From positions 23,404-87,403 of the forward strand of contig JBBSVU010000006.1 of NCBI GenBank assembly GCA_038046645.1: 64,000 nucleotides of DNA, given 5' to 3'. Shown piece after piece: positions 4,324 through 50,882 of the stretch (positions are counted from its first letter, which is position 1; each line of letters starts with the position of its first letter). The DNA is from an archaeon. GTDB taxonomy: Archaea > Iainarchaeota > Iainarchaeia > Iainarchaeales > 0-14-0-20-34-12. The position numbers and the translations under genes are program-made. The notes below the pieces were generated by a model. That model saw only the letters and a program-made list of their open reading frames with translations. It was not told where the DNA came from and did no database searches.

Positions 4324-4342
4324 AGAGTAGATTTCCCCTGAA
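4324..4342 (-). promoter_or_regulatory. Conserved 19-bp operator upstream of radA TATA box
   Basis: TTCAGGGGAAATCTACTCT then 9 nt then TTTATAAA. Confidence 0.85.
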
Positions 4343-4367
4343 CTCCGTCTTTTCTTTTTCTCTTAGG

Positions 4368-4660
4368 AAGAGAAAAAGAAAATATAGGCTGTCAAAAGAA
4401 AAAGAGAAAAGAAAATATGGGTTGCCGAAAGAAAAGAGAAAGAAAAAGTAGGTTACAACTAATATCAAAGGACAAAAATAAAGAAACAAAAGTCGTCCTT
4501 TGATGGCTATAAAAAGACATTATAAAAGTTTCTAGATTAATGTCTTTTTATATAAAATCCAAGGGATTTTAGTGTACATTAAAATTCATAAGAATTTTAA
4601 TTGTATTAAGAGAAAGAAAACTTTGGTTGCCAAGAAAAAGAAAAGAGAATGTAAGTTGCT
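4368..4660. repeat. Degenerate purine-rich direct repeats in radA-rpa intergenic region
   Basis: Units like AGAAAAGAAAATATRGGYTGYCRAAAGAAAAG at about 4371, 4405, 4437 and 4609. Confidence 0.5.
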
Positions 4661-4692
4661 ATTAAAAATAACTGATTTATACTTGGCCTTTG

Positions 4693-5985
4693 TTATGGTA
4701 GGTTAAAACTTCTTACCCCTACTCCTAATTTATCTTCAAATGTATTCTTTCTCACATTGCCTTCTAGTTCAATCTTTTTTCCTAAAATGTTGTTTGAAAT
4801 TTCCTCAATAAGGTCATCGCTATTTTTTGTTTCTAATTCACTTTTAATTTTATCCGCTTCCTTCCCAATTATTGCCTCAGCGTTTTCCCTGAAAAATGTT
4901 GTGTCAATGCTGCCTGTGCCGTCATCTACTGTTAATGAAATTATCGCGGTGGGCATCCCCTTTTGTTTGCATTCATCACATTCCCCTGTTTCCCTGTTCA
5001 CTTTCTTGCTGCACTGCGGGCAGCTGTCATAAACAAGCCTTCCGCGGTTTACTGAAAGGATTGTGCCAGAAATTTTTATTCTTGAATCAGTTTCAGTTAT
5101 CTCTGATATTTTTTTTTCAACAGCCGATTTTATGCCCCCAAGCTCTTCTAATTCAGGAATTTTTTCTTCTGTTTTTGGGGTTTTTAAAACTCTGGCAGAA
5201 TACCCTAAATGCAATTCAATATCCTTTAATCCTTGTTTGGTATAAGCCCCCTCAATTTTAATTAAATCGCCTGCTTTTAATTTTAAAATCTCATCAACCA
5301 TATCATTCCATGCAGTAGCCCTTATTGCCTTTGTCCCGTCATTTAGCATGAAATTTATTACCCCCTTTTTTATTCCATCTTTTTCAAAATAGTTTACAGG
5401 AAAAATATTTATTACCCGGGCTATCACATCAACATTCTGCAACCCCTCTTTTATTTCATTTAATTTCATCAGATTATTTGATTCACTTAATATGATAGTT
5501 TCATTTGTATTCTTATCAATCTGCGAGGAAAAGCCAATATTCAAAGAAGGTTTTTCATTGAACATCGAAATATAGCAATTTTTAAGCAGCAGGATGTGAT
5601 TCTTCTGCACATCTTCAAGCTCTTTTACGTGGTTATGCCAGGCGGTTGCCCTGCATTCCCCGGTTTCATCTTCCACAAGCATATTGCACAACAGCCCTTT
5701 TTTCCCGTTTTTCTCAAACTTTTTTGGTGCATAAATGTGTTTTACCCGCACTAAAATTGTAACTGTTTGCATGCCCTCTTTTAACTCATTTATTTTCGAC
5801 CTTACAACATTAGCTTCCAAATCAATTCCATAATCCTTTGCAACCATAAATGCTGCGCCTTCCTTGCTTAAAAGCCCAGCCATTTTTTTTTGCTTTCTGT
5901 CTATTTTATCAAGGATTTCTTCATTGCTCTTGCCTGTCTCCTTTATTATCCTTTCAAGAATGCTTTCAAAATTTGCCGCTTGCAT
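4693..5985 (-). CDS. rpa: Replication protein A (multi-OB fold with Zn ribbon)
   Basis: Repeated OB folds (DETG, DGT, DDGTG), CPQC...CDEC zinc finger. Confidence 0.9.
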   Translation of the reverse strand: MQAANFESILERIIKETGKSNEEILDKIDRKQKKMAGLLSKEGAAFMVAKDYGIDLEANVVRSKINELKEGMQTVTILVRVKHIYAPKKFEKNGKKGLLCNMLVEDETGECRATAWHNHVKELEDVQKNHILLLKNCYISMFNEKPSLNIGFSSQIDKNTNETIILSESNNLMKLNEIKEGLQNVDVIARVINIFPVNYFEKDGIKKGVINFMLNDGTKAIRATAWNDMVDEILKLKAGDLIKIEGAYTKQGLKDIELHLGYSARVLKTPKTEEKIPELEELGGIKSAVEKKISEITETDSRIKISGTILSVNRGRLVYDSCPQCSKKVNRETGECDECKQKGMPTAIISLTVDDGTGSIDTTFFRENAEAIIGKEADKIKSELETKNSDDLIEEISNNILGKKIELEGNVRKNTFEDKLGVGVRSFNLP

Positions 5986-6041
5986 AGTATTCAATTATCC
6001 CTTACAAACAATTTTAACCTTATGCGAACCAGCATTATTTT

Positions 6042-6692
6042 ATGGTTCATGAGATTAAACCGAAGATTTTTACCTTAAAATCAAACAATGAAGGATCCAA
6101 TGTTTATTTAATAAAAGACAAATTAAATGTGCTTATTGATTCCTCCTTATCCAAGAATTTTGATTTGATTATTGGTCTCTTGCGCAAGTTGGATTTAGCG
6201 CCGGTTGATATTGATTTGATTCTGCACACCCACGGGCACGCAGACCACATAGGTTGCTCAGCCTTTTTCGAGAAAGCAAAGAGAGCCATGCATCCATTCG
6301 ATGCTTTCCAAGTGAATGAAAAGAAAGATGATTTTTCCTATGCCTATTTTTTCAATCAGAAAGAATATCCTGAAATAGGCAAATTTCTTTCAGATTCAGA
6401 AATAATTGATTGTGGCAGCATTAAACTAAATGTAATTTTTACGCCAGGGCATACAAAAGGCTCGGTTTGTTTTTTTGAACCAAAAAACAAAATACTTTTT
6501 TCTGGTGATACCTTGTTTTATGGGGCATATGGAAGGACAGACCTGACTTCAAGTGATGAAGCAGACATGAAATCATCTCTTGAAAAACTTTCAAATATTG
6601 ATTTTGAGGTTTTGCTTCCAGGGCACGGAAGGTTTTTGACTGGAAAAAAAGCGCAGAAATCAAATATTGAAAATTTGCTGGCTTTGTTTTAG
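6042..6692 (+). CDS. MBL-fold metallo-hydrolase
   Basis: THGHADHIG, TPGHTKGS, SGDTLF, LPGHG. Confidence 0.93.
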   Translation: MVHEIKPKIFTLKSNNEGSNVYLIKDKLNVLIDSSLSKNFDLIIGLLRKLDLAPVDIDLILHTHGHADHIGCSAFFEKAKRAMHPFDAFQVNEKKDDFSYAYFFNQKEYPEIGKFLSDSEIIDCGSIKLNVIFTPGHTKGSVCFFEPKNKILFSGDTLFYGAYGRTDLTSSDEADMKSSLEKLSNIDFEVLLPGHGRFLTGKKAQKSNIENLLALF

Positions 6693-6751
6693 TTCGAAGA
6701 GAAATAGCGCACAGCATGGTTTAAATACCTGTTTTGCCCCTATTTTATCTT

Positions 6752-7537
6752 ATGATTAAAGACCATTTTGGGAAAACCTATCAGAAGATTGTGGCTGAAT
6801 TGGATAAAAAAAAGGGTTTGGCATTTTTGGTCATAGACCCGCCAAATCAGGAACCGAAGTTAGCAGGAAAGCTGGCGCAGATTGCAGAATCCAATAATTT
6901 CGGCGCAATTGCCATTGGGGGGTCAGTTGGGGCGGAAGGAAAACTGCTTGAAGAAACCCTGCAGGAGATAAAGGATAACTGCAAGCTTCCTAGAGTTTTA
7001 TTCCCTGGCAATATCTCAACATTGTCGGCAAATGCTGATGCTATTTATTTTATGAGCATGTTAAATTCAACAGATCCTTATTATATTACCGGGGCACAAA
7101 TAGCTTCCTCCTCATCTATTAAAAGAATTAAATTAGAAGCAATCCCTACTTCCTATATTATTGTTGAGCCAGGAAGGGCAGTTGGGTGGATGGGCAAAGC
7201 CAAATTAATACCCAGGGATGTTCCGTATCTAGCAGCAATAACTGCGTTAGCAGGGCAATATATGGGGGCTCATTGGGCAATCCTTGAATCAGGGGGAGGA
7301 GCACCAGAACCAGCTCCGCTTGAGATGATTTCATTCACAAAGAAAATGATTGATATTCCGTTAATTGTTGCTGGTGGTGTCAGAACTCCTGATTGGGCCT
7401 ATAAAGTAATCAAGGCTGGGGCAGATATCATTCACATTGGCGCTGCAATAGAGGCAACAAATGGAGATTTGAAAAAAGCAGATTCCAGGATTTCAGAATT
7501 CAGCAAAGCAGTTGAAAAAGCAGCAAGGGAAAAATAA
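6752..7537 (+). CDS. Geranylgeranylglyceryl phosphate synthase (PcrB family)
   Basis: VIDPP, IGGS, LFPGN, YIIVEPG, LESGGGA, VAGGVR. Confidence 0.9.
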   Translation: MIKDHFGKTYQKIVAELDKKKGLAFLVIDPPNQEPKLAGKLAQIAESNNFGAIAIGGSVGAEGKLLEETLQEIKDNCKLPRVLFPGNISTLSANADAIYFMSMLNSTDPYYITGAQIASSSSIKRIKLEAIPTSYIIVEPGRAVGWMGKAKLIPRDVPYLAAITALAGQYMGAHWAILESGGGAPEPAPLEMISFTKKMIDIPLIVAGGVRTPDWAYKVIKAGADIIHIGAAIEATNGDLKKADSRISEFSKAVEKAAREK

Positions 7538-7573
7538 TTCTTTTTCTTATCCCTATTTTTGCAATAACCTAAA

Positions 7574-8494
7574 TTATTTTCTTATCTTTTTCTCTTTTTC
7601 TAGAATCTCAAAAACAGTCCTTGCAATCGCTTCCTTAGTATCATAGCTTGGTTTCCAGCCTAATGCCTTTATTTTTTCTATGCTATACCATCTCCCCCTT
7701 GTTAACCTGTCAAGATGCTCTGGGCTTACAATTGATTTTTTGCCAAATAGTTTTCCAATAACTAAGTAAAAATATGCCAAAATTTTTCCAATAACAGTAG
7801 GAACGCTTTTCTGGTTTTTGTTCATTCCCAAGGATTTTCTTATTTCAAGTATTACCTCTTTCAATGTAAGCGGGCTTTCTTCTGCAATATTCAATGTTTC
7901 CCCAGCTGCTTTTTTGTGTTCAACCACAAATATGAGTGCATTAACCAAATCAGTAATATAGATCATCTGCCATTTATTCTCCCCATTCCCTATTAGTGGG
8001 AAATCCTTTCTAATTAGCTGAATTATTTTTTCCCAATATTCATTTTGCCCGAGAATAATTGTCGGCCTTAGAATATTTATAGTAATTAACTCTTGATATT
8101 CATTCAGAATACGCTCTGCTAATAATTTAGTTTTTTCATAATGTGTTTTGGGGTTTAATTTAGATTCTTCTGTTTTTATTTCTTCACAATCGCCATAAAC
8201 CCCTACCGAACTCATTAAAATAAATCTTGAAACTTTGTTTTCAACAGCTGCTTTAATCAGATTTTCAGTTCCAGTAATATTTACTTTATTTAGCAGCGGT
8301 GAATGTTCATCCAAAACAGCAGCCAAATGCAGGACAATATCAATTGAGCCGCACGCAGCTCTGCACTGCCCCACATCTAAAATGTCTTCCCCTTTTTTGG
8401 AATCAAATTCCCGGATCCAATGCCCCCTTTTTCTAAGAACCTCAACAATTCTCTGCCCAACAAAACCTGAAGAGCCGGTTACTAAAATACGCAT
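7574..8494 (-). CDS. NAD-dependent epimerase/dehydratase
   Basis: TGSSGFVG Rossmann motif, SSVGVYG, YEKTK. Confidence 0.9.
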   Translation of the reverse strand: MRILVTGSSGFVGQRIVEVLRKRGHWIREFDSKKGEDILDVGQCRAACGSIDIVLHLAAVLDEHSPLLNKVNITGTENLIKAAVENKVSRFILMSSVGVYGDCEEIKTEESKLNPKTHYEKTKLLAERILNEYQELITINILRPTIILGQNEYWEKIIQLIRKDFPLIGNGENKWQMIYITDLVNALIFVVEHKKAAGETLNIAEESPLTLKEVILEIRKSLGMNKNQKSVPTVIGKILAYFYLVIGKLFGKKSIVSPEHLDRLTRGRWYSIEKIKALGWKPSYDTKEAIARTVFEILEKEKKIRK

Positions 8495-8653
8495 GATTAT
8501 CCACAGTGTTTTATGATGTTAAAAAAAAATAATATATTGTACTGAGTTAAGTATAATTTATTAATAAATGTTTTTGTTGACAATCTTTTTTCCAATAACT
8601 ATGAAATTTCACCAAATGCTCTATTTTTAACCTTTTTTTTGGTTTGATTAGTT

Positions 8654-9721
8654 ATGATAGGCATAGATGGAGCACACGGTGAGTCCGGAGGGCAGATTTT
8701 AAGGACAACTTTGGCATTATCCGCACTTTTGCAAAAAGAAATAGAAATAAAAGATATTAGAAAAGGCCGTGAGAAACCAGGCTTGAGGCCACAGCATTTA
8801 GCTGCAGTAAAAACAATGGCTAATGTTTGCAATGCCAGGATTTCTGGCCTGTTTGAAAATAGCACTGCTTTAACTTTTAATCCTACAAAAATCCAGTCAG
8901 CACAATTGAATATTAATATTTCAACCGCAGGTTCAGCTGCATTGCTTTTGCAGCAATTATTTCCAGTTGCATTGTTGGAGGAATTTACCTTTAGAATTGT
9001 TGCTGGCACCGATGTTCCATTTTCTCCATCACTTAATTATTTGAATGCTGTTTTTTGCCCTATCATCAAAAAATTGGGTGCGAATTTTTCACTTGAACAA
9101 ATGGCTCATGGCTATTATCCCATAGGAAATGGCCGTGTTGTTTTTAGTTCAAAAAAAGCAAAGCTTCCATTAAAACCAATAAACATCAGCAAATTAGGCA
9201 ATCTTGAGTGCTTTAAACTATTTTCACATTCTTCAGGGCTGCCAATGGAGGTAGTGGATAATCAATTATGTGCAGCAAAAAATATTCTCTCAAAGAATTT
9301 TGAGGGTATTGATATTTTTGACAAGATTGATTTTTCATCCAGAAAGGATACGATAGGCTCAGGGATAGACATCTTTGCATGTTTTTCCTCTGGTGCGGTT
9401 TTAGGCACAAATTCTTTAGGTAAAAAAGGCATTCCGGCAACAAACGTTGGGAATGAGGCAGCAGAAAAAATCGTTTCAGAATTAAAAGCTGAAAAACCTT
9501 GCGATTCCCATTTGGCTGACCAGCTTATTATATATATGGCTCTTGCAAAAGGCATTTCAAAGATAGAGTGCACAAAATTGACAAACCATGCTCTGACAAA
9601 TATCTGGGTCATAGAGCAATTTTTGCCAGTAAAATTCCAAGTAACTGGGAATCTTAATGAAGCAGCAGAGATTTCAGTTGAAGGCATTGGATTTACCCTC
9701 CAAGATAACCCAAGTCTTTAG
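8654..9721 (+). CDS. rtcA: RNA 3'-terminal phosphate cyclase
   Basis: GESGGQILR, PGLRPQH, AGTDV, HLADQL, TNHALTN. Confidence 0.95.
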   Translation: MIGIDGAHGESGGQILRTTLALSALLQKEIEIKDIRKGREKPGLRPQHLAAVKTMANVCNARISGLFENSTALTFNPTKIQSAQLNINISTAGSAALLLQQLFPVALLEEFTFRIVAGTDVPFSPSLNYLNAVFCPIIKKLGANFSLEQMAHGYYPIGNGRVVFSSKKAKLPLKPINISKLGNLECFKLFSHSSGLPMEVVDNQLCAAKNILSKNFEGIDIFDKIDFSSRKDTIGSGIDIFACFSSGAVLGTNSLGKKGIPATNVGNEAAEKIVSELKAEKPCDSHLADQLIIYMALAKGISKIECTKLTNHALTNIWVIEQFLPVKFQVTGNLNEAAEISVEGIGFTLQDNPSL

Positions 9722-9757
9722 AATTAAAATAAGTAGTTATTCAGAATTCCTTGCTGC

Positions 9758-10951: not shown

Positions 10952-11021
10952 AATCTTATTACTTATAAAATAGTTATTAAATTGTATGGAATGGTTATCC
11001 TGATTTTGTCTTCAATTAAAT

Positions 11022-11402: not shown

Positions 11403-11410
11403 AAGAACCC

Positions 11411-12184: not shown

Positions 12185-12218
12185 AAAAATTACTTGTGTA
12201 AATGTCTTTAAAATATTT

Positions 12219-12237
12219 TCGTCCTAGTTCTGGACGA
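12219..12237. promoter_or_regulatory. Palindromic operator candidate in divergent TrmB promoter
   Basis: TCGTCC-N7-GGACGA. Confidence 0.5.
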
Positions 12238-12273
12238 CAGAAACATATTAACAAAAGAAATTATTGTTAATAT

Positions 12274-25334: not shown

Positions 25335-26306
25335 CTAAGTTATCAACGAATAATTCAGTTTATGCTCCTTTGTGATTGTTAAAATCTCGCAAGAATCAAT
25401 AATATCGGAGAACTTCTCCCTTAGTTCATCCATTATTTTCCTTAGCTCTTCCCTTCCTTTTACCTCAAAATCAAAATGGACATCAGCCAACCCAATCTCC
25501 TGTATTAAATAAATTACATTTGGATGGTTCTCCCCATAACCTACAAAATCCTGCAGCCTTTTTGCAGTAATATTCCTCAATGAAAATATTGCCTTGAAAT
25601 AATAAAGCCCGATCTTCTCCAAATTTAATCTAATCCAATGGTGGATTAACCCTATCTTTTCAAGCCTTTTAATCCTATAGCTTACTGCTTCCGGGGTAAT
25701 TCCTGCCTCTTTTGCCAATTCCTGCAATGTTGCCCTTGAATTTTTTGATAATTTCAATCCAATTTCAATATCAATTTTATCCAATTCTGCTTTCTCTGCA
25801 GGCACAAAAATATTCCTTGAACTTTCTTTAGGTATTTTCTCCTCAATGAGGTATTTTCTGTTGAAATAACTCAATCTTGTCCTGAAATAAAAAGTTCTAG
25901 CTTTAATCTTTTCCCCAAATTTGTATGTAAATTGCTGCAAAAAATCAAAATAATCTGCAATTGTCTTCCATCTAGTATTTATTAATAAATCCCAATGGCC
26001 TTCAGTTGAAACAACCCAGCTAACGTTATTGCTTTCTTTAAAATAATTTATTATTTGATTTTCATCTTCTTTTGTTGCTCCCTTGAATTTGAATAAGATT
26101 GCATAGTCTGTGTAACCCAATGCCCCAATATTCCATGTTGTAATAAACTCTTCAATTATCCCTCTTTCTAACATCCTTTCAATCCTGAATTTCACTACTT
26201 GTTTGCTTAACCCTACTTTTTTTGCTATTTCTGAATATGATTTCCTTGAATTTCTATCTAATTCAAATAAAATCTTGCGGTCCTTCAAATCTAGTTCATA
26301 TGCCAT
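25335..26306 (-). CDS. Tandem Lrp/AsnC family regulator
   Basis: Two HTH-RAM units (LDLKDRKILFEL..NSR; LDKIDIEI...NSR). Confidence 0.9.
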   Translation of the reverse strand: MAYELDLKDRKILFELDRNSRKSYSEIAKKVGLSKQVVKFRIERMLERGIIEEFITTWNIGALGYTDYAILFKFKGATKEDENQIINYFKESNNVSWVVSTEGHWDLLINTRWKTIADYFDFLQQFTYKFGEKIKARTFYFRTRLSYFNRKYLIEEKIPKESSRNIFVPAEKAELDKIDIEIGLKLSKNSRATLQELAKEAGITPEAVSYRIKRLEKIGLIHHWIRLNLEKIGLYYFKAIFSLRNITAKRLQDFVGYGENHPNVIYLIQEIGLADVHFDFEVKGREELRKIMDELREKFSDIIDSCEILTITKEHKLNYSLIT

Positions 26307-30221: not shown

Positions 30222-31199
30222 ATGCGTTATTTTACAATAGTTTTGATTTTGATTGTATTTACCCTGCTAGCAGCAACAGCAAGCGCTAAATATTCTTCAA
30301 AAGACTGTTTTTTCAAAGAACATAAATTAAAAATAATCAAACCGCTTTCCTTGGCAAAGGACAACCTTTTAGTTAATGCTATCAATAAAAAAATTACCCC
30401 AATTAATATTTCATTATGCAATTTATCCAATTTTATCGAAAGAAAAACACCGCCAGAAGTTATTGCAACATACTCAGCTGTTTTGCTAAAAGGAAAGCCA
30501 ACAATTAAGGTAGATATTGAGTATTCAAAAAAAATTTCCAAAAAAGAAAATTCACAGAATAAAATCTATCGCCTTTATATTGATCCAGTAACTGCCAATA
30601 TTACTCTAATAAAATACCAGTCAAGGTTAGTTAGAAAGGCGTATTCAAGGTATGCTGCAAATTATTTCCTTTCTGACCGCGATTTGAACCTTTTAAAATA
30701 TTTAATCATGCCAAAAACCGCTATTTTTGCGAAATATTTTAACGAATCTAAATCTACAGATGAAGCATCACCAGAGCAAGCAATGCCACAAGATGATTAT
30801 TTTGAATTCCCGCAAGATGCTAACATATTACAGGGAGATGGGATACACCCAAGTGCCTCAGGGACAAAGGTAATCGCAAACAATAATGTTGCAATTCAAT
30901 TCAACAAAATAGCCATAATAGGCGATTCACAGATATCCTTGCTTTTTGACATTTATATCGGTGAGGAAAAACTGAATATTATGCCATTGATTATTTCAGG
31001 CAGCATCTTTTCATTTGAAGGCAAATTCTATGGCTTGAAGGTGAATGTGGATAAAAGCTATCAGGTGCAAGGCATTCCACTTAAGCAAATTGTCAAATTA
31101 ATTAAAAATTCAAACTATATTTCCATTGAAATTTCCTCGCTTATTTCTGAGAAGGTTACATCCTGTGCAATTTTACAACAAATGTTTAGAAAAAAATGA
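30222..31199 (+). CDS. Secreted hypothetical protein
   Basis: Signal peptide MRYFTIVLILIVFTLLAATASA. Confidence 0.65.
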   Translation: MRYFTIVLILIVFTLLAATASAKYSSKDCFFKEHKLKIIKPLSLAKDNLLVNAINKKITPINISLCNLSNFIERKTPPEVIATYSAVLLKGKPTIKVDIEYSKKISKKENSQNKIYRLYIDPVTANITLIKYQSRLVRKAYSRYAANYFLSDRDLNLLKYLIMPKTAIFAKYFNESKSTDEASPEQAMPQDDYFEFPQDANILQGDGIHPSASGTKVIANNNVAIQFNKIAIIGDSQISLLFDIYIGEEKLNIMPLIISGSIFSFEGKFYGLKVNVDKSYQVQGIPLKQIVKLIKNSNYISIEISSLISEKVTSCAILQQMFRKK

Positions 31200-32409
31200 T
31201 GCAATGTCCTGCAGCTTAATATGCCCAAATATGCCTTTAAATAACCAGGAAAAAATAACAACAGAAAACATTAATTTCTTTTTTTCACAAACATTTGATG
31301 CAGCATTGAAAGAATCAGTTCAAGCGGCCTTTGCAGAGTGTTATCCTAAGGTAAAGAATTATCTCCAAATTATGCCATATTCAAAATTAAATGTTAAAGC
31401 ATATTCCAAGCAAGATTGCCCTGACTGCACTTATTATGTCACAAATATCGGTGGAATTGATTTAACCTTGTATGAACAACAAGAATGCGGTGAAACATTT
31501 GCCCATGAGCTTACCCATTATTTTAATTATGCCAGCTCTCTTTCCCCTAATATTCTTGAAGAAGGCAGAGCAGTATTTATTTCAAAAGACATTGTTTCTG
31601 AAAATCAGGGGATGCAATCAAGCAAGGGCATAGATTGCTTGGCTGATTCATGGAAATATTCAGGGGAAAAGCCATTATCTGAAAAGATTGGGGAAGAGAC
31701 CGTTTGTGTTAATAATGCTACATCCAATTGCGGCAAAAAAACACTTTGGCAGATCGTAAATACCCCAGTATCTTTACTGACAAAAACATTTTCTAATGGT
31801 TACACCTTGAAGGTACAGGATTATTCATCCAATAAATTATCTTTTGACCTTTTTGATGAAGCAAATCAATTTTTGGAAAATGTAACATTAAAGCCATTGG
31901 AGTTTTTTGAAGGAAATAATTTCTTAGTCCATTTCGGCAAAATTATTACCCCATCTCCAATAAATCAGCAAATAGTACTGTTATTGATGCTTGATGATTA
32001 TAATTTACAGTGCTTTGTTGAAAATAAGCAGCAGTGCAATGTAAAAGCATCAAGCTGGCCGGAGAATAAATTTGCAAAGCTTGAAGAAGCGACATATTCA
32101 ATCAATTCTTTGAATACTGGATATTGTTTCTTCAAAGCCCTTAATTCTTTAAGTGCGGGCATTGTTAAAGCGTTATCTGAAAAAATGGCGTCTTCAAGAA
32201 ATGACTTCAAGGTATTCTGCACTGAAGATTTTCTTAAAACAAAGATTCAGCCATCAGATTTAAACATATTAAAGCAAAAATACGGCCTTGAAACTTATAT
32301 TGACCAATGCAAATTTTCAGCAATCCCGGCAGCACTTTTAGGCTGCCCAATGAACCTTGGATGTTACAGCTATTATGACCCTGTACAAGGTTGGGTTAAT
32401 ATTGAATAA
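31126..32409 (+). CDS. Cys-rich zincin-like metallopeptidase domain protein (possibly frameshifted continuation of upstream ORF)
   Basis: FAHELTHY...LEEGRA gluzincin-like motif. Confidence 0.65.
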   Translation: MKFPRLFLRRLHPVQFYNKCLEKNDAMSCSLICPNMPLNNQEKITTENINFFFSQTFDAALKESVQAAFAECYPKVKNYLQIMPYSKLNVKAYSKQDCPDCTYYVTNIGGIDLTLYEQQECGETFAHELTHYFNYASSLSPNILEEGRAVFISKDIVSENQGMQSSKGIDCLADSWKYSGEKPLSEKIGEETVCVNNATSNCGKKTLWQIVNTPVSLLTKTFSNGYTLKVQDYSSNKLSFDLFDEANQFLENVTLKPLEFFEGNNFLVHFGKIITPSPINQQIVLLLMLDDYNLQCFVENKQQCNVKASSWPENKFAKLEEATYSINSLNTGYCFFKALNSLSAGIVKALSEKMASSRNDFKVFCTEDFLKTKIQPSDLNILKQKYGLETYIDQCKFSAIPAALLGCPMNLGCYSYYDPVQGWVNIE

Positions 32410-32428
32410 TTCAGGGGAAATCTACTCT
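32410..32428 (+). promoter_or_regulatory. Conserved 19-bp operator upstream of LAGLIDADG gene
   Basis: TTCAGGGGAAATCTACTCT then 9 nt then AATTTAAA; identical to the radA copy over 27 nt. Confidence 0.85.
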
Positions 32429-32466
32429 TCCAAAGCTAATTTAAATGATAAAAAGCAACAATAACT

Positions 32467-33255
32467 ATGAATCTTTCTTTGATGTCTATTGAATATTTAA
32501 CTAATTCATTGTTAGATCCAAAAGTAATCACAAGAGAAGTAAAAGTCACTAAAAGAGATGCTTACTTTGATTTTATTGTTTATAGGAATGCAAGACGTTC
32601 GAGAATTCCGTTTGAACTTAATTCATCCATTGCATATCTTTGTGGAGTTATTTTAGGGGACGGTAGCATATCACTAATTCATAGGAAAAAAGTAAATACC
32701 GTTCTACCTTATACCTTTCTAAAAATATTCAACCAATCATTACCATTCTTACTTCAAATTAATCGCCTTTTTAAAGAAAATTTTGGGACTGAAGGCAAAC
32801 TATATAAAAAAAATTATTGTAACTGTTATGTTCTTCAAGTTTCTAATAAAATAGTTTGGTTATATTTTGTTAAACTACTTGGTTTGCCTATTGGTAAAAA
32901 AAGCAACATTAGTATTCCCCGATCTTTATTAAATAAGAATATTTTCAAATATTTTGTTGCAGGTCTAATGGATACTGATGGTTATTTTTCAGAAAACTCC
33001 TTTGGAATAATGCTTTCTGGATCTAATTTGATTTTTTTGGAGTCAATAAAAAAATATTGCAAGTGCTTTTATGGCATTAATTTTAGAAAAACTAATATAA
33101 ATACTTTAGAAGTTAATGGTAAATTATTTCAAAGAGCGCAGATAACTACTTCTGCGAATTCCATGAATACGTTTAAAGGAATAATTCCCCTATGTCATGA
33201 AAAATGGGATGGGCCCGGTGAGGATCGAACTCACGAGTTCCACCGTACCCAGTGA
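32467..33255 (+). CDS. Free-standing LAGLIDADG endonuclease-like protein
   Basis: AYLCGVILGDGSI and YFVAGLMDTDGY motifs; 3' end runs antisense into tRNA-Val. Confidence 0.88.
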   Translation: MNLSLMSIEYLTNSLLDPKVITREVKVTKRDAYFDFIVYRNARRSRIPFELNSSIAYLCGVILGDGSISLIHRKKVNTVLPYTFLKIFNQSLPFLLQINRLFKENFGTEGKLYKKNYCNCYVLQVSNKIVWLYFVKLLGLPIGKKSNISIPRSLLNKNIFKYFVAGLMDTDGYFSENSFGIMLSGSNLIFLESIKKYCKCFYGINFRKTNINTLEVNGKLFQRAQITTSANSMNTFKGIIPLCHEKWDGPGEDRTHEFHRTQ

Positions 33256-40263: not shown

Positions 40264-40273
40264 GGTTTACTCA

Positions 40274-42383: not shown

Positions 42384-42510
42384 AATAAAATTTACCTTAA
42401 TAATCTATTTTTGTAGACTAAACAAATAGTATCCCACTTGCCTTATACCCCCGTTTTTATTTATTATGTATTCTATTCTATTTTTATTTATTCTGCATTT
42501 TATTTAACAT

Positions 42511-43401: not shown

Positions 43402-43422
43402 CCTTATTTTTATTTGCAAACT

Positions 43423-43441
43423 TTCACAGGAAATCTACTCT
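43423..43441 (+). promoter_or_regulatory. Conserved operator (variant) upstream of nurA
   Basis: TTCACAGGAAATCTACTCT then 9 nt then TTTATAAA. Confidence 0.8.
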
Positions 43442-43482
43442 CTCCATTTGTTTATAAACCCCAAATTCTCTTTTATTTCAGA

Positions 43483-44580
43483 ATGAATCCTTTAAGAATA
43501 ATTTCTGAAGCTGTTGAAAACATAAAGCAGAATGAGGCAAAGAGAGTAGATGCAGTAAAAGAAATTCTTGCAAAAAAATATTCGAAAATTGATTTTGATA
43601 CAGGTTCAAAAAATTGCTTGCTTGAAGATAAATTGGTTTTTCCAATTGCTGAACATACTTTGAATTCAAGGATTGCGGCGGTTGATTCAGGCTTTGTTGG
43701 AAAAAACCTTTATTCTTTTGACCTGCTTTTCATAAGGACAGCAGGTGTACTTTTTACTTATAAAAACAACATTCTTGAGAGGGCAGCATATTACCCAGAA
43801 ATGTTTTCCTTCCCAAAGCCAATTTTCATCAATGGAGCTTTACAATTAGATGAAAGCTCGGTTTCAAGAAGCCTTTACCGCCTATTTGAAGAAATTGGCT
43901 TAGCCAAAGAAATAATTGAAAAGGAAAAGCCGGAATACTGTTTAATCGACGGTTCAATTATTCCACAGCATGCAGACAAGCCAAGAAAGGATTCTAAGGT
44001 AACAAATTCATATTCAAAGGTTATTTCCCTATTTGAAAGTTTATACAAAGCAGCAGAAGATAATGGCACAATTTTAATCGGATGTATTGAAGATTCAAGA
44101 GGTTCAAGATTCAGGGAAATAATCCAGCAGAATTTTGTTTCTGAACTGAATAAACCAAGGTTAGATGATTGCTATGATTCTGTTTTGTTGGATTCCTTGC
44201 TAAAAGAAAAGGAAAGAACCTCTGCATTCCATTATACAAACAATATCGAAATGCACCCTATACTTTCAGATTTTAATGAAAAATATTCAAAAGCCGTGAA
44301 TGTTTGTTACTTAAAACCTTCAAAATATGATCGTGCATTAAGGATTGAATTTTTGTCAAATGAAAGGAATGAAAAACTAACTGAATTTGTGGATAAAATT
44401 TCACCCGTAATCTGCCAATTGTCATCACTGCACAGGGAATATGCATTTCCCTCCCCTTTAATAGAAGCAGATTTAAGGGCAGGTTTAAATCCAGACGAAA
44501 TAGAATTTGTTTTCAACAAAATAGCTGACAAATTAGGCAATAATTTTAGGCTAATGCGCAGGGATTCAAGGCCGTTTTAA
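43483..44580 (+). CDS. nurA: NurA nuclease
   Basis: AAVDSG, LIDGSI, RIEF, FPSPLIEAD..A. Confidence 0.88.
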   Translation: MNPLRIISEAVENIKQNEAKRVDAVKEILAKKYSKIDFDTGSKNCLLEDKLVFPIAEHTLNSRIAAVDSGFVGKNLYSFDLLFIRTAGVLFTYKNNILERAAYYPEMFSFPKPIFINGALQLDESSVSRSLYRLFEEIGLAKEIIEKEKPEYCLIDGSIIPQHADKPRKDSKVTNSYSKVISLFESLYKAAEDNGTILIGCIEDSRGSRFREIIQQNFVSELNKPRLDDCYDSVLLDSLLKEKERTSAFHYTNNIEMHPILSDFNEKYSKAVNVCYLKPSKYDRALRIEFLSNERNEKLTEFVDKISPVICQLSSLHREYAFPSPLIEADLRAGLNPDEIEFVFNKIADKLGNNFRLMRRDSRPF

Positions 44581-44724
44581 ACAAGCATTATTGAAGTTAT
44601 CCTTAACCTATTTATTCTATTTGTTCACTATTTTAATATGCCTAGCCCAAAACCCTCAAGAAAAGTTATGTTTAAGAAAAACATTCTAATGCTAGTTGGG
44701 GTTAGTTCCCTCTTAGCCAATTAC

Positions 44725-45615: not shown

Positions 45616-45693
45616 ATTCTACTCATATTGCAACCTTCTTAATTATTTTTGGTTTGCAGGTAATACACAAAAAGTGTCCACTAGAAAGAATAG

Positions 45694-45712
45694 TTCAGGG
45701 GAAATCTACTCT
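45694..45712 (+). promoter_or_regulatory. Conserved 19-bp operator upstream of herA
   Basis: TTCAGGGGAAATCTACTCT then 9 nt then TTTATAAA. Confidence 0.85.
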
Positions 45713-45752
45713 TTGCAATGCTTTATAAACAACCTTTTGGCTTAAGTAATTC

Positions 45753-48700
45753 ATGGTTATAAATAATTCACAGACTGTTGGCACAGTAATTTCAGCAATA
45801 AATTCCCCAAACCCTAGTTCTGCAGATTTTGTTGTTACCTCTGGCTTAATACACAGAGGGCAATTTGTTGAAATAGAAAATCCATCAGGCAATTTTATTG
45901 CCTTGGTAATGGACGTATATAAAACAAACAAATATTTTGAAAGGGCTGACTCAGTAAAAGAATTTGAATCAAAAGGCCAAGCATTATTTGAACAGTTTCC
46001 TGTACACGAATGGGAATACCTTGTCGCAAATACAAAACCTTTAGGTGTGTACTCTGGCGACAATTTCTACAGGCCAAGCTTTCCTCCATCCCCAGGATCA
46101 AAGGTAAGGATTGCTGATTCTGAAAAATTAAAAAAATTCTTCCATTTTGATGAATCTGGCTTGCATTTAGGCAATGTTGAATACCATGATTTATCTGTTA
46201 AACTGAATCTGTCAAGGATGTTGAAGAAACACCTAGCAATTTTAGCTATGTCTGGTTCGGGAAAATGCGGTGATTACAATCTTGAAATATTGTTGAGTAA
46301 TGGCAGGACAATTAAGCTTGGTGAGCTTGTTGACAACCATTTGAAAAATAAAAAAGTAATTGAAGATAATGTCGAGGTCTGTGATGTTAATCCAAATAAC
46401 TTAAAAGTAATTTCCATAGGTAAAGATAATCAACCAATAACCTCTGAAATTAAGGCGTTTATGAGGAGGAAGGCCCCAAAAAAGATGTTTAGAATCAGGA
46501 CAAGAACAGGCAAACAATTATTGATTACTCCAGAGCACCCAATACCGATTCTAAATGAACAAATAAATTGGATTCAAGCTAAAAATCTTGCTAAAAAAGA
46601 TTACCTAATTACGACAATGCCCCTAATAGAGGGATCAGAACAAATAATTGATTTTGTCCAATTATGGAAGAATTCTTCTAAAGTCAGAGTTGATGATGAG
46701 CTTATTCTGGCTGAATTAAAATCTAAACTTTTTGAGAAATATTCAATAAAAGAGTTTTCAAAAATCATTAATATGACCCCCCAAAAACTACAATATTTAT
46801 TATCGCATTCAGGAGTTCCTTTGGATTATCTAAAATTAATTTGTAACAAATTAGGCGTGGATTTTTTGGAGATATGTTCAAAAATAAAAACATTAAAAGT
46901 ACTGTCTTCCAGAATCCCTGCAAAGGTTATTGTTGATGAAAAATTTGCAAGATTTATGGCTTATTTGTTAGCAGAAGGACATAATAGTGGTCAAACTATT
47001 ATTTTTACTAATAGCTCTACTTTAATTAGGGAAGATTTTAGCAATCTAACAAAATTATTTGGTGTTACTGCAAGCATTAATAGAAAGAGGGATATTGAAC
47101 TTAGAATTTATAACAAACTTTTAGCAGACAGTTTATTTAAGTTAGGTTTTACTGATTCTAGTTGGACCAAATATATTCCAGAGGAGATTCTATTAAGTAA
47201 AAAATCAGTTTTAGCAGCTTTTTTGGGTGCATTTATTGATTGTGATGGTTATGTTAGTTCTAAGAAATCACATATCGAAATAACGCTTGCCAGTAAACAG
47301 ATGTTAGACAACATAGAACAGATAGTTTTGCGATTTAAGTTAAATCCAATAAGAAAGATAAAAACAGTTAAAGGCAAACAATATGGCAGGTTATTTTTAG
47401 GCGGTGCGGATTATTTAACTATCCTAAATAATGAATTAACCCTTTTAATAGACTATAAAGCAAAAGCGCTTAAGGAATGTTCCTTAAAAAAACCAAATTC
47501 AAACATTAGGGTAATCCCCAACATTAAACATACTTTAGCTTTCCTACAAAATAAGCTTAATTTAACCCAAAGCCAATTTGTTAATATTGCTAATTATTTG
47601 TCGCGAGAGGAAAGGCATGATGATCCAACACCCACTTCGTTAAAATCTTTACTGAATGAATTTGAACATAATTATGAAAGTATTCAGAGTACCCTAGCTC
47701 AAACAAAAAAATTATTTTATGCTATGCCAAATTTAACTGAAGAAGATGCAAAAAAAATACTTGTAGATGCCTACTCTAAATATGATTTTAACAAAATTGC
47801 TAAAAATACAAATATTTCAAGCACTACCGCAAGAAGAGTAGTAAGAGGTTTAACCGAACCAAACCTAAATACCTTTTGCCTTGCTAAAAATGCCTTGGCT
47901 TTAGAAAATGAATCTGATTTAGGCATAGATGTAATTACTAATTTAGACTTTAAGCAACTAGCCAGTCAAATTAGGGTTTTGTGTAAAAATATTGGTTGTG
48001 AAATACAGGAGTTATGCAACAGAAGTGGGTTTAACGATCAATATTTGGATGGTTATTCTTACAATCCCTTAAATACAATAAGGTATTCAAATATCTACAA
48101 GGTTTTGTATAATCTCTTTATTATTTCATTAGATAAAGAAAAGCAATTGCCTGAAATTAGAGAGAAACTTGATTTTTTGCACACACTTATTTCTGATAGC
48201 TTATTTTTTGATGCAATTGAATCTGTTGAAGAGGTTGATTATGACAAAGAATATGTTTATGACTTATGTGTAAAAGAGCACAATTTTGTTGCAAATAATC
48301 TAATCATTCACAATAGTTTTTCAACAGCTTGTTTAATTGAAGAGCTCCTTAACCGGCAAAAAGAAAAAGGCAGGATTGCAATTGTTGTTTTAGACCCGCA
48401 TGGTGAATATTCCAGCTTTGCCCAGCCTGTGAAAGATGGCAAGTATGAGGATTTTTCTGACCGCACGAAAATCATTAAAGCCCAAAACATCAGAATAGCT
48501 GTGCCAAAAATGAGCGTTCATATGCTTTCTGGAATAATTCCTGGATTAACAATTCCGCAGAAAAGGGATTTAAGCAGGATTTTATCAAGCCTTAAAGAAG
48601 ATATGTATCGCGGCTTAGGGCCTTTTGATTGGTCACATGTAAAAGATGCAATTTTGAAAGATGACAATATAAAGCAAAATTCAAAATTCCCTTTAATGGG

Positions 48701-49349
48701 CTGGATTGATGATCTAATGTCCTATAACTTATTTGCGAGGACAGATATGCCTGCTGTTTCTGAATTAATTAAACCAGGAACATTAACAATACTTGATTTT
48801 TCAGACATAGTGAACATGAAAAAGAAGCAGATGATTGTAAGTTATTTTGCAAACAAGCTGTTTGATGAAAGAAAATCAAATGTAATTCCCCCGACACTTT
48901 TAATTGTGGAGGAAGCTCATCAATGGTGTCCGCAGATGGCATCAGAAGAATCAGCTATTTCCCGTTCCATTCTGCGAACAATTGCAAGGGAAGGAAGAAA
49001 ATTTGGAATGTCCCTTTGCATAATTTCTCAAAGGCCTGTTCAGCTTGATACCACAACACTTTCACAATGTTCCACTCATTTAATTTTGCGCATTACAAAC
49101 CCAAACGATTTGAAACACATAGCAGAATCATCAGAAGGAATTGACCAAAGAAGTTTTGGAATAATAAATTCCTTGCAGGTTGGGGAAGGATTGCTTGTTG
49201 GGGAAGCAACAGGCTATCCATTATTTTTTAAGGTAAGGTATAGGAAATCAATGCCAAGCAAGCATGAAATTTCCCTAGAAGATGCAGCTTTGAAATTTGA
49301 AAGCTCTGCAGATAAAACAAAGGCTGAAACCGAGGGATTTTTGGAATAA
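45753..49349 (+). CDS. herA: HerA helicase/ATPase containing an intein
   Basis: HAS domain, HLAILAMSGSGK|S, VLDPHGEY, VEEAH, AREGRKFG, ISQRP. Confidence 0.92.
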   Translation: MVINNSQTVGTVISAINSPNPSSADFVVTSGLIHRGQFVEIENPSGNFIALVMDVYKTNKYFERADSVKEFESKGQALFEQFPVHEWEYLVANTKPLGVYSGDNFYRPSFPPSPGSKVRIADSEKLKKFFHFDESGLHLGNVEYHDLSVKLNLSRMLKKHLAILAMSGSGKCGDYNLEILLSNGRTIKLGELVDNHLKNKKVIEDNVEVCDVNPNNLKVISIGKDNQPITSEIKAFMRRKAPKKMFRIRTRTGKQLLITPEHPIPILNEQINWIQAKNLAKKDYLITTMPLIEGSEQIIDFVQLWKNSSKVRVDDELILAELKSKLFEKYSIKEFSKIINMTPQKLQYLLSHSGVPLDYLKLICNKLGVDFLEICSKIKTLKVLSSRIPAKVIVDEKFARFMAYLLAEGHNSGQTIIFTNSSTLIREDFSNLTKLFGVTASINRKRDIELRIYNKLLADSLFKLGFTDSSWTKYIPEEILLSKKSVLAAFLGAFIDCDGYVSSKKSHIEITLASKQMLDNIEQIVLRFKLNPIRKIKTVKGKQYGRLFLGGADYLTILNNELTLLIDYKAKALKECSLKKPNSNIRVIPNIKHTLAFLQNKLNLTQSQFVNIANYLSREERHDDPTPTSLKSLLNEFEHNYESIQSTLAQTKKLFYAMPNLTEEDAKKILVDAYSKYDFNKIAKNTNISSTTARRVVRGLTEPNLNTFCLAKNALALENESDLGIDVITNLDFKQLASQIRVLCKNIGCEIQELCNRSGFNDQYLDGYSYNPLNTIRYSNIYKVLYNLFIISLDKEKQLPEIREKLDFLHTLISDSLFFDAIESVEEVDYDKEYVYDLCVKEHNFVANNLIIHNSFSTACLIEELLNRQKEKGRIAIVVLDPHGEYSSFAQPVKDGKYEDFSDRTKIIKAQNIRIAVPKMSVHMLSGIIPGLTIPQKRDLSRILSSLKEDMYRGLGPFDWSHVKDAILKDDNIKQNSKFPLMGWIDDLMSYNLFARTDMPAVSELIKPGTLTILDFSDIVNMKKKQMIVSYFANKLFDERKSNVIPPTLLIVEEAHQWCPQMASEESAISRSILRTIAREGRKFGMSLCIISQRPVQLDTTTLSQCSTHLILRITNPNDLKHIAESSEGIDQRSFGIINSLQVGEGLLVGEATGYPLFFKVRYRKSMPSKHEISLEDAALKFESSADKTKAETEGFLE
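46266..48314 (+). mobile_element. 683-aa intein with LAGLIDADG endonuclease in HerA Walker A
   Basis: GSGK|CGDY start, TPEHP block B, YLLAEG and FIDCDG, VYDL...HNFVANNLIIHN|S end. Confidence 0.93.
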
Positions 49350-49365
49350 TCATCAACTTGCCTAT

Positions 49366-50001
49366 TTATTTCCTTAATTCTTTAATAATCTGGTCCCTGG
49401 CCTGAATGCATGCGTTTTTGCATTCTTCATTTAATGGTGATGGAAGATTTCTGCTATCAACAATCTCCTTATCAGTTATTTTGCCAATTGCTGAAACAGC
49501 CCTAGTTATTCCTTCTTGGTATTCTGCTTCACTTTTACTTCTTAGCCCAAGCAAGTGTTTAAAACTCTCAATTGATCCAGTGCGGCTTCCAGTAATTGGT
49601 ACGGCATATTGCACTACAAAGTGGAGGCGCAAGCGTTCACCAGTGTGTTTGTTGCCATTTCTTATTGATTCAATGACTCTTTCTTTTGTTCCTAAATATA
49701 TTGGCCTTACTGCATCAACAATTGCATTTTCTGCATACAGCTCTAAAGCATCGCCATACCTTGCTTTTAAATCTTTCCAGAACCTGGCATAAATTGTTTC
49801 TAAACGTCTTAATTCACCTGTTCCCTGCTCTGGGGGAAGAGCACCTTCTTTAATCCAAACAAGCTGTTTTGCTAATTCTTCACTGCATTCTCTTTTCAAT
49901 TCCTTTAATGGCGGGCGCCGTATTGGAATAGCTTCATGGCTTTCAATAGACCTTCTTCGTGCCATATTCCAAGGAACTGGTTTTGCTGGTGCTTTTGGCA
50001 T
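49366..50001 (-). CDS. Orphan with Pro/Arg-rich N-terminus
   Basis: MPKAPAKPVPWNMARRRS. Confidence 0.7.
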   Translation of the reverse strand: MPKAPAKPVPWNMARRRSIESHEAIPIRRPPLKELKRECSEELAKQLVWIKEGALPPEQGTGELRRLETIYARFWKDLKARYGDALELYAENAIVDAVRPIYLGTKERVIESIRNGNKHTGERLRLHFVVQYAVPITGSRTGSIESFKHLLGLRSKSEAEYQEGITRAVSAIGKITDKEIVDSRNLPSPLNEECKNACIQARDQIIKELRK

Positions 50002-50132
50002 AATATTTACTTCTTTAGAACTGTTTATATTTGTTATTATGTAGTAGAATGTGTTTCCTTTAGTTTATAACAAAAACTATCTTGATTTATTTTTTAGGAT
50101 TGTTTTTAATTGTTTTATGTGCTTATTTTTGT

Positions 50133-50801
50133 ATGCCTGTGAAGTTAAGAACCAGAACAATTAGATTTAGGGAACGGCAGGGCCAAGATACTTATTATTA
50201 TGAATTAATTAAGGAAAGAATAAAGCGCCGTTGGAGATATCGTATCCGTAAAGGATTAATGAAGGCAGCAGAATGCCATAGTGCAATATTTAACAGGTTG
50301 AAAAAATTAGGAATCCCAATATCTACTTTATATGATGTAAGAACCGGCGGGATGCAATATACTGCCAAGGATATGTCAAAAGGCGGCTATTTAAGGATAA
50401 TTAATGCATATGAAGCAACAATTGCAGCAAGAAAGCGTACAAAAAAATGGGCTGATGCATCTGCCTACTGGAAAGACAACCCTATCTCGAATATGCGCAG
50501 CATTGTTTCAGGCATTACTAGGGATTTGGCAATAATGCACAAAAATGGCTTGTTTATTTCAGGGCGAAGAGTTGTTCTTGAACCTTGGCTTGTTTATTTT
50601 CGCGGAAAAGAAAATGAGAAGCAAAGAATTGCATCAAGGGCAATCACTGATGTCGGGTCAATACTTGAAACATCCAAAATGAGTATTAATGATATTTATG
50701 ATGCATATATGGATAATATTGAAGACCTACATATTAGTTTTCCTGAAGAATATCAAAGCCTTATTGATAAAACATATGCAAAATATTTTACTTCGGCCTA
50801 A
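50133..50801 (+). CDS. Orphan with degenerate kinase-like fold
   Basis: LKKLGIP, KDMSKGG, RDLAIMHKNGL, ITDVG; basic leader MPVKLRTR. Confidence 0.5.
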   Translation: MPVKLRTRTIRFRERQGQDTYYYELIKERIKRRWRYRIRKGLMKAAECHSAIFNRLKKLGIPISTLYDVRTGGMQYTAKDMSKGGYLRIINAYEATIAARKRTKKWADASAYWKDNPISNMRSIVSGITRDLAIMHKNGLFISGRRVVLEPWLVYFRGKENEKQRIASRAITDVGSILETSKMSINDIYDAYMDNIEDLHISFPEEYQSLIDKTYAKYFTSA

Positions 50802-50863
50802 CCATCTAATTCAATGAAAAGGTCTTAGCTTAGCATTCAGGGGAAATGCCCCTAGAGGGAAAG

Positions 50864-50882
50864 TTCAGGGGAAATCTACTCT
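50864..50882 (+). promoter_or_regulatory. Conserved 19-bp operator upstream of PolB2-like gene (extra partial copy at 50836-50847)
   Basis: TTCAGGGGAAATCTACTCT then 9 nt then TCTTTAAA. Confidence 0.85.

Follow-up and report, generated by a model that had tools for sequence, protein, structure and literature searches.

Does a short DNA element that recurs before recombination genes of a small archaeal genome define a regulon, and what might read it? The question is raised by a 64,000-nt stretch of contig JBBSVU010000006.1 (assembly GCA_038046645.1, positions 23,404 to 87,403, forward strand), hereafter called the window, in which a 19-bp box, TTCAGGGGAAATCTACTCT, stands upstream of radA, nurA, herA, a gene for a PolB-like protein, and a LAGLIDADG gene. 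A first-pass annotation, made from the letters alone, had taken the box for the operator of an SOS-like DNA-damage regulon. To our knowledge, the Sulfolobales are the only archaea in which a network regulating recombination and repair genes has been established, and we know of nothing on gene regulation in DPANN archaea. We followed the box through the window, through the genome that contains it (termed G000; a 1.17-Mb assembly in 25 contigs, 35.5% GC, 89% complete), and through related genomes of the same order (G001, G012, and so on). Judged by its geometry, its gene content, and its conservation, the box is probably the site of one sequence-specific transcription factor that would place recombination, replication, and selfish nuclease genes under common control throughout the order.

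Within the window, TTCAGGGGAAATCTACTCT occurs four times exactly and once with two mismatches, at the coordinates listed below and just where the earlier annotation had placed its operator. These 5 matches at up to 3 mismatches compare with 0.02 expected, and none of 100 shuffles reached 5. All five copies point towards the downstream gene and are followed after 9 nt by a TATA-like 8-mer (TTTATAAA three times, AATTTAAA and TCTTTAAA once each). The start codon lies 50 nt after the box for radA, 38 nt for the LAGLIDADG gene, 41 nt for nurA, and 40 nt for both herA and the PolB-like gene, confirming on the sequence the orientation, TATA spacing, and range of 38-50 nt first reported; the identities assigned to RadA, NurA, HerA, and the LAGLIDADG protein were borne out by Pfam matches. 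When the five regions were aligned, similarity was confined to the 19-mer and to the TATA-like 8-mer 9 nt downstream, with unrelated flanks, which argues against the host-gene copies being fragments of some bigger mobile unit. The boxes, their TATA elements, and their genes are:

4324..4342, minus strand: box copy 1, exact, radA promoter, located by pattern match; the radA orthologue of the same-genus genome G001 carries TTCAGCGGAAATCTACTCT in the same place
4307..4314, minus strand: radA TATA box TTTATAAA, 9 nt past the box; the ATG at 4273 lies another 33 nt on
3317..4273, minus strand: radA, 318 aa, Pfam Rad51 family (E = 4.6e-92), with an N-terminal helix-hairpin-helix (HhH)
32410..32428, plus strand: box copy 2, exact, promoter of a free-standing LAGLIDADG gene, beginning right after the stop codon of the open reading frame (ORF) 31126-32409
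32438..32447, plus strand: TATA-like AATTTAAATG, with the 8-mer at offset 9 or 11
32467..33255, plus strand: LAGLIDADG homing-endonuclease-like gene, 262 aa, Pfam LAGLIDADG_3, two LAGLIDADG motifs with an acidic residue in each
43423..43441, plus strand: box copy 3, TTCACAGGAAATCTACTCT, two mismatches, nurA promoter; boxed nurA orthologues in G001, G017, G014, G029, and G030
43451..43458, plus strand: nurA TATA box TTTATAAA
43483..44580, plus strand: nurA, 365 aa, Pfam match, counted from the ATG at 43483 and not from the TTG at 43414 of the ORF list
45694..45712, plus strand: box copy 4, exact, herA promoter; herA of G001 is also boxed
45722..45729, plus strand: herA TATA box TTTATAAA
45753..49349, plus strand: herA, 1198 aa, Pfam HerA, split by an intein with a LAGLIDADG domain
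50836..50847, plus strand: extra half-box TTCAGGGGAAAT, 16 nt 5' of box copy 5, scoring 10.7 with the position weight matrix (PWM); a comparable half-box precedes the G001 orthologue
50864..50882, plus strand: box copy 5, exact, promoter of the PolB-like gene; boxed orthologues in G001, G012, G026, and G057
50892..50901, plus strand: TATA-like TCTTTAAATA
50923..52437, plus strand: putative PolB palm-like protein, 504 aa; the motif A region LDFSSIWPEVI is kept and motif C reads AVDS, not DTD

Throughout G000, 24 copies were found at up to 3 mismatches and none of the reversed pattern. A PWM scan gave a bimodal distribution of scores, with 27 sites at 23 bits or more, a next site at 21.5 bits that has no TATA, and all others at 15.3 bits or less. 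Each of the 27 sites is oriented towards a downstream gene or element. The TATA offset after the box is 9 nt at 21 of them, 11 nt at 3, and 7, 8, and 15 nt at one each; a TATA of this kind is met at only 2.6% of random positions. Most start codons follow the box by 38-41 nt, a distance that points to leaderless mRNAs at these promoters; the box would then span about -58 to -40 if transcription begins near the start codon. The genes radA, mcm, and two small genes start 46-51 nt after the box and have a GGTG/GGAG-type ribosome site before the start codon.

The genes downstream of these sites are overwhelmingly DNA-transaction genes: eight host DNA genes, seven LAGLIDADG genes, eight tnpB genes, two deletion derivatives of insertion sequences (IS), and two unassigned genes. 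Its remark that no copies precede non-repair genes holds inside the window, whereas genome-wide 17 of the 27 copies head selfish nuclease genes or IS; it had overlooked the predominance of LAGLIDADG genes and IS605/TnpB elements among the bearers of the box.

The eight host genes are radA, nurA, herA, mcm (C6:121581-125258, carrying a LAGLIDADG intein), the PolB-like gene, nre, a gene for a Cas4-like PD-(D/E)XK nuclease, and a gene for an 87-aa, putatively PC4-like protein that has no Pfam match. The two further box genes, of 56 aa and 264 aa, have no assigned family. The 504-aa PolB-like protein likewise has no Pfam match, and a profile made of it and two orthologues matches Thermococcus family-B polymerases at residues 391-428 and 479-541 (E = 3e-4), where motifs A and C are located. 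The 504-aa protein retains the Asp of motif A, and motif C is degenerate (AVDS in G000, VATG in the G057 orthologue). On this profile the label 'PolB palm-like' seems justified, and the earlier 'PolB2-like' is supported as far as the palm and no further. As a separate observation, inteins are present in herA and mcm of G000 and, among relatives, also in boxed radA, mcm, and DEAD-box helicase genes, such that intein hosts and box genes overlap strongly.

Among the selfish genes, the seven free-standing LAGLIDADG/homing-endonuclease-like genes include several with an N-terminal helix-turn-helix (HTH), and the eight tnpB genes belong to IS605-type copies, many of them at contig ends. The tnpB assignment is based on OrfB_IS605 and Cas12f1-like_TNB matches for one scanned copy (L015) and on near-identical N-termini for the others. 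In these elements the box lies ~55 nt inside the left end, past a subterminal hairpin and before tnpB, a position from which box-plus-TATA is the predicted tnpB promoter. In two internally deleted IS605-type elements, what is left is the box promoter within the left end and, at the other side, the final ~200 nt, which consist of the tnpB 3' end and the right end:

G000 C1:61100-61385: internally deleted IS605-type element
G000 C6:211139-211482: internally deleted IS605-type element

In characterised TnpB systems, the tnpB 3' end and right end yield the omega-RNA, and these derivatives would transcribe only the omega-RNA region. An Rfam search found no family for their short box-driven transcripts, only two tRNAs. 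Homing endonucleases rely on homologous repair of the breaks that they make, and the same has been proposed for TnpB; because both would depend on such repair, it is biologically sensible for selfish nucleases to share the promoter of recombination genes.

The abundance of TnpB elements, together with derivatives reduced to an omega-RNA region behind a box promoter and the near-identity of the 19-mers, would be compatible with a box read by an RNA guide, e.g. by a TldR-like regulator derived from TnpB and its omega-RNA. Yet none of 45 right-end-like sites is followed by a box-like flank (best 9/12), the variable positions 5-6 of the box fall directly after the would-be target-adjacent motif (TAM), and the box is kept across families whose IS elements differ. 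We regard an RNA-guided reader as extremely improbable, below any other explanation considered here.

The same 17 selfish copies raise another explanation, namely that the box is part of a mobile promoter cassette, a strong constitutive module that would need no regulator of its own, spread by IS605/TnpB elements and homing-endonuclease genes and gained by host genes through insertion or gene conversion. Its location ~55 nt within the IS left end, its retention in the two deleted derivatives, the existence of nine identical copies, and a run of 152 identical nt shared by the radA and PC4-like promoters are all in line with this idea. On the other hand, the host-gene copies share nothing with the IS past the box and TATA, and the 152-nt identity is due to an unrelated repeat family dispersed through the genome. 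The spacers concerned are:

4343..4692, minus strand: repeat-rich spacer upstream of the radA box and distinct from the box itself; 152 nt of its repeats recur unchanged upstream of the PC4-like gene
G000 C6:8134-8318, C6:153962-154255, and C6:121440-121515: other spacers of pyrimidine/purine modules

Upstream of the boxes of radA, mcm, the PC4-like gene, and the 56-aa gene, the spacers consist of modules that run pyrimidine tract, pyrimidine tract, loop, purine tract; from their sequence, such mirror-plus-inverted repeats could fold into an intramolecular triple helix (triplex hairpins). Since the same modules also occur a few nt before tRNA genes and at ~30-40 other intergenic places, they represent a general repeat family and not a part of the box.

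Orthologous promoters in related genomes bear on the cassette explanation. At up to 3 mismatches, the word is found 21 times in G001, 13 times in G012, and 7 times in G023 (controls 0-1 per genome); a search of the order's other 37 genomes gave few or no copies in most of them. The box genes of G001 are mcm, radA, herA, nurA, the PolB-like gene, nre, the 56-aa gene, LAGLIDADG genes, and tnpB, while those of G012 and G023, which belong to other families, are LAGLIDADG genes, tnpB, genes for DNA methylases, the orthologue of the PolB-like gene, an ssb-like gene with an OB fold, and a PIN gene. With a pattern for the core ([C/T/A]A[C/G]NGG[A/C]A with a TATA-like hexamer 17-23 nt later, one 8-base variant allowed), the 300 nt upstream of radA contain core and TATA in 23 of 30 relatives, and the 300 nt upstream of mcm in 21 of 30; the controls gave 0 on the opposite strand and ~0.2 in shuffles. 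The core thus drifts in a lineage-specific manner yet stays in place at orthologous promoters, which indicates vertical inheritance under selection; spread as a mobile cassette is accordingly an unlikely origin for the host-gene copies.

Other patterns extended the gene set. Applied to five distant genomes, a CACCGG...TATA pattern gave 5, 6, and 10 sites in G017, G014, and G026 (controls 1, 2, and 1), 1 in G016 (control 3), and 0 in G031. Fifteen downstream proteins were scanned out of these 22 matches, and they include mcm (twice), nurA (twice), nre, ssb-like, C5 methylase, tnpB, and PIN products, along with two acylphosphatase-like proteins and one glycosyltransferase (the G016 match, probably due to chance). 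BLAST added PC4-like and PolB-like orthologues to this set, and a further match lies at the G017 radA promoter. A strict pattern, applied to a phylum sample of 121 genomes, matched in 28 of them (19 matches in G000 and ~105 elsewhere, against 4 control matches in total) and gave none in 7 genomes outside the order. For nine of the matching genomes other than G000, 39 downstream proteins were examined: 16 lack a Pfam family (one of these is a PolB-like orthologue), and the other 23 comprise RadA (4), MCM, NurA (2), Hef, an XPD-like helicase, a PD-(D/E)XK nuclease, LAGLIDADG (3), TnpB, DNA methylase (2), PIN (3), HicB, DUF488, DUF7718, and Bro-N. Family f10 carries a GGCAA variant at radA and mcm, and single genomes carry both GGAAA and GGCAA box types. 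In several families, the box heads nurA, nre, PolB-like, PC4-like, and OB-fold ssb genes.

Copies before random genes, variable spacing or orientation, and absence from orthologous promoters, the outcomes named in the first-pass annotation as contrary to its proposal, did not occur. The box is not a repeat of the miniature inverted-repeat transposable element (MITE) or repetitive extragenic palindromic (REP) type, as 27 of 27 copies are co-oriented, the TATA spacing is fixed, and the box is kept at orthologues. Its original reading as a shared cis-element that defines a regulon is upheld by the fixed TATA geometry, the DNA-transaction genes, and the retention at orthologous radA and mcm promoters. 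Adding the switch-like distribution of scores and the coherent gene content, we infer that the box would be a one-factor site defining a conserved regulon.

Several findings weigh against this interpretation. Nine of the 27 copies are perfectly identical 19-mers, which is unusually uniform for a transcription-factor site, and ten of the 27 are within IS605-type elements, with many tnpB copies at contig ends, indicating that the copy number partly reflects transposition. The core pattern was composed after the promoters had been seen, so the sensitivity is flattered, although its controls are clean. Neither radA nor mcm has core plus TATA in G028, G031, and G007, and the strict pattern gave no match in four well-sampled families, f23, f3, f10, and f30 (counts of 0/14, 0/13, 0/20, and 0/15). 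Finally, in the window no box was found for RPA (located directly upstream of radA), Hjc, the Toprim protein, the Rad50-like ATPase, or thymidylate kinase. One of these genes adjoins the box-regulated ones:

53650-56019, minus strand: Rad50/SMC-like ATPase, 790 aa, next to box-regulated genes and itself without a box

The position of the box suggests how a single factor could act. It would bind directly upstream of the B recognition element (BRE) and TATA and thereby exert common control over radA, nurA, herA, nre, the nucleases, mcm, the PolB-like gene, and the small proteins of single-stranded DNA (ssDNA)-binding type. Activation, by helping TFB/TBP onto the promoter, is the most likely mode because archaeal activators act from directly upstream of the BRE; the first-pass annotation had made the same point, which agrees with the known activator sites described in excerpts of PMC5817253. 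LAGLIDADG genes, IS605/TnpB elements, and, in relatives, DNA methylase and PIN/HicB toxin-antitoxin genes would use the same box in their own promoters, so that expression of the selfish genes would coincide with that of the host machinery for repairing the breaks they cause. Since mcm is included and RPA, Hjc, and the Rad50-like gene are omitted, a replication/recombination or cell-cycle programme fits equally well as the SOS-like one.

Some observations concern the promoters more locally. Besides the half-box before the PolB-like gene, there are two tandem cores in the G021 radA promoter and a copy of GGGAAATCTAC inside the IS left-end hairpin; such extra elements may be auxiliary sites for cooperative binding. 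In most relatives (radA upstream regions of 15: L098, L101, L102, L104-L108, L110-L112, L114-L116, and L119), radA has a ~90-nt 5' leader that is absent in G000. This leader contains a conserved hairpin (GGGG, stem, CCCAAA loop, stem, TTCC) followed by CAAAAAGC and a ribosome site, and 7 of 8 predicted pairs show compensatory changes; it may be a regulatory leader RNA. In G001, a box with TATA is also located ~130 nt upstream, on the same strand, of a long-arm tRNA gene at 1781-1867(-) (L062, G001:C49).

Which protein could be this factor? As an asymmetric 19-bp site that contains just a small TTC...GAA dyad, the box differs from the palindromes of dimeric archaeal regulators and resembles Orc1/Cdc6 sites. 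Compared with sequences given in PMC3089459, it agrees with the Sulfolobus solfataricus mini-origin recognition box (mini-ORB) 17-mer, which has the same spacing, at 9 of 12 positions and with the C3 site at 9 of 11; these resemblances were noticed post hoc, and each is estimated to arise by chance in a few per cent of cases. G000 encodes two Orc1/Cdc6 paralogues, at C23:8664-9875 and C6:154398-155522, with 31% mutual identity and both closest to structures of the ORB-binding Orc1-1/ORC1 type and not to Aeropyrum pernix ORC2. The Cdc6_C model gave at least two matches in 33 of 41 genomes, and five genomes searched with the Orc1/Cdc6 protein itself, four of which were single-match cases for Cdc6_C, all contained both paralogues. 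One of these two paralogues is the best candidate for the binder, a tentative assignment.

The surroundings of the second orc1/cdc6 gene (the B paralogue) give a mixed picture. In G000 a box-driven promoter lies 437 nt from it, in divergent orientation, and the corresponding copy of G001 is on the same contig as the B paralogue and upstream of it. In G017 (C1, L180, just upstream of 1127039), an inverted box core, GCACCGGAAACGCACTC, abuts on the opposite strand the TATA-like sequence of the second orc1/cdc6, an arrangement that would allow autoregulation. No box was found within 400 nt of the second orc1/cdc6 in G031, G039, and G011, and in G004 the upstream region is cut by the contig start; the pattern of autoregulation is therefore inconsistent between genomes.

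The mini-ORB and C3 resemblances (PMC3089459, accessible part), as well as the copy 437 nt from an orc1/cdc6 gene, could also mean that the copies are dispersed origin-recognition boxes that serve Orc1/Cdc6 loading in replication and not transcription. This is very unlikely given the rigid distance and orientation relative to TATA and gene start, the single copies where origins would have clustered inverted repeats around an AT-rich stretch, and the lack of a G-string extension. No ORB-like repeat clusters were found upstream of or next to orc1/cdc6 in G000, G017, and G031, and the GC skew of contig C6 was too noisy for origin placement.

Returning to a transcription factor as reader, the rivals of Orc1/Cdc6 are an HTH-LAGLIDADG protein, another winged-helix factor, or a protein of some unrecognised kind. 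In the first case, a WhiA-like protein derived from a homing endonuclease would regulate its own paralogues and have been recruited to host recombination genes. A 19-bp, asymmetric, and very uniform site is of the size class of LAGLIDADG targets, all free-standing LAGLIDADG genes inspected in G000 are preceded by the box (several encode an N-terminal HTH and give weak LAGLIDADG_WhiA matches), and free-standing LAGLIDADG genes were present in 5 of 5 further genomes checked. The paralogues are, however, numerous and divergent with their catalytic acidic residues kept, as expected for selfish enzymes rather than for one conserved regulator; tnpB, methylase, and PIN genes are boxed as well, so that possession of a box does not mark a regulator; and the presence of any single LAGLIDADG orthologue throughout the order is not established. 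An HTH-LAGLIDADG binder thus seems improbable. The window also encodes a winged-helix candidate:

25338-26306, minus strand: tandem winged-helix protein, 323 aa, with two AsnC/MarR-type domains in one chain; regulator candidate

A single-chain tandem winged-helix reader of this kind could recognise an asymmetric bipartite site. No recurrent transcription-factor family was seen among the 39 downstream proteins of the nine further genomes, and one small winged-helix gene with a box was found, in G003 (L028).

Two other candidates were not supported. Box variants resemble a reversed E2F site, but the best E2F_TDP match (E = 0.0047, 17.3 bits) is below the cut-off of 25.7 bits, and the search also responds in the Escherichia coli and Bacillus subtilis controls. 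A second TFB class gained no support either, as only one TFB gene was found in the 89%-complete assembly. The same assembly has no match for TBP (PF00352), which is probably an assembly gap.

In summary, the box is a precise cis-element found across the order before a defined group of genes (radA, mcm, nurA/herA, nre, hef, PolB-like, and small proteins of ssDNA-binding type), and the question of an archaeal SOS-like or S-phase-like regulon, along with its regulator, can now be put to a direct test with a 19-bp probe and a few candidate proteins. Selfish nucleases (LAGLIDADG, TnpB) systematically share the host recombination promoter, and membership in the regulon flags probable DNA-repair factors, i.e. 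the 504-aa PolB-like, 87-aa PC4-like, 56-aa, and 264-aa proteins. It is conceivable, although we would not bet on it, that an Orc1/Cdc6 kept throughout the order binds a promoter-adapted origin-recognition box and is the master activator of a replication-plus-recombination regulon across DPANN. If so, the system would correspond in archaea to the DnaA/LexA circuits of bacteria and to the G1/S programme of eukaryotes, and would be one into which homing endonucleases, TnpB, methylases, and toxin-antitoxins are wired, cutting only when repair machinery and sister chromosomes are present.

How does this putative regulon compare with known systems? In the bacterial SOS response, the recombinase is co-regulated through the LexA box with repair and translesion-type genes, and mobile elements and toxin-antitoxin genes are plugged into the circuit. 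The use of the box by LAGLIDADG, TnpB, methylase, and toxin-antitoxin genes parallels this tapping of the SOS signal by bacterial mobile elements. Repression by LexA works through a palindromic operator that overlaps the promoter, whereas the asymmetric box stands upstream of the core promoter. The system is best described, on its promoter architecture, as an apparent upstream activating box regulon, a known design whose box we did not find described in the literature; no paper describing it in DPANN archaea was found among open-access full texts and preprints.

With ORB and mini-ORB sites, whose core motifs are TTCC and GAA (PMC1904270, in excerpt), the box shares a TTC...GAA dyad-like core and an asymmetric extension, and its size fits the footprint of a monomeric, bipartite Orc1/Cdc6. 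In contrast to them it has TTCA...GAA and no TTCC, is one base shorter than the consensus TTCCAGTGGAAA (as quoted in part of PMC4153887), has no G-string, and occurs as single promoter copies instead of forming clusters about an unwinding element. The TFB-RF1 (PF1088) site of Pyrococcus furiosus, described in the available portions of PMC5817253 and PMC5937170 as an upstream activating site next to a weak BRE, is likewise non-palindromic and immediately upstream of the BRE, and TFB recruitment is the proposed mechanism. Sites of this type serve one or few operons, unlike the box with its 27 promoters in a 1.17-Mb genome and its order-wide distribution.

The closest published system is the DNA damage-responsive element (DDRE) of the Sulfolobales, 5'-A(N)TTTC-3', which according to excerpts of PMC6061795 and PMC5817253 is non-palindromic, lies at -44 to -39 upstream of the BRE, and is bound by Orc1-2. 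Like the DDRE, the box is non-palindromic and directly upstream of BRE/TATA with its 3' end at ~-40, is common to a set of DNA-transaction genes, fits an activator, and has a consensus of the 20-bp class beyond the core. The two differ in sequence: TTCAGGGGAAATCTACTCT has no A(N)TTTC on either strand, the nearest being GATTTC on the reverse strand, and shares with the Sulfolobus islandicus 20-mer just the pentamer TACTC, at another position. They differ also in gene sets (here radA, mcm, nurA/herA, nre, and selfish nucleases; ups, ced, and tfb3 for the DDRE) and in lineage (DPANN-type small genomes versus Sulfolobales), and the DDRE has a known binder while the box is known from its sequence. 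A second case of the Orc1/Cdc6 family in damage-linked transcription, outside the Sulfolobales, is Orf8 of the haloarchaeal virus SNJ2, an Orc1/Cdc6 homologue that is a DNA-damage-activated transcription switch (PMC10123103, in excerpt). In contrast to the system described here, Orf8 is virus-encoded and concerns one viral gene, and its binding site is not comparable to the box. Together, Orc1-2 and the SNJ2 homologue provide precedents for members of the Orc1/Cdc6 family acting in transcription.

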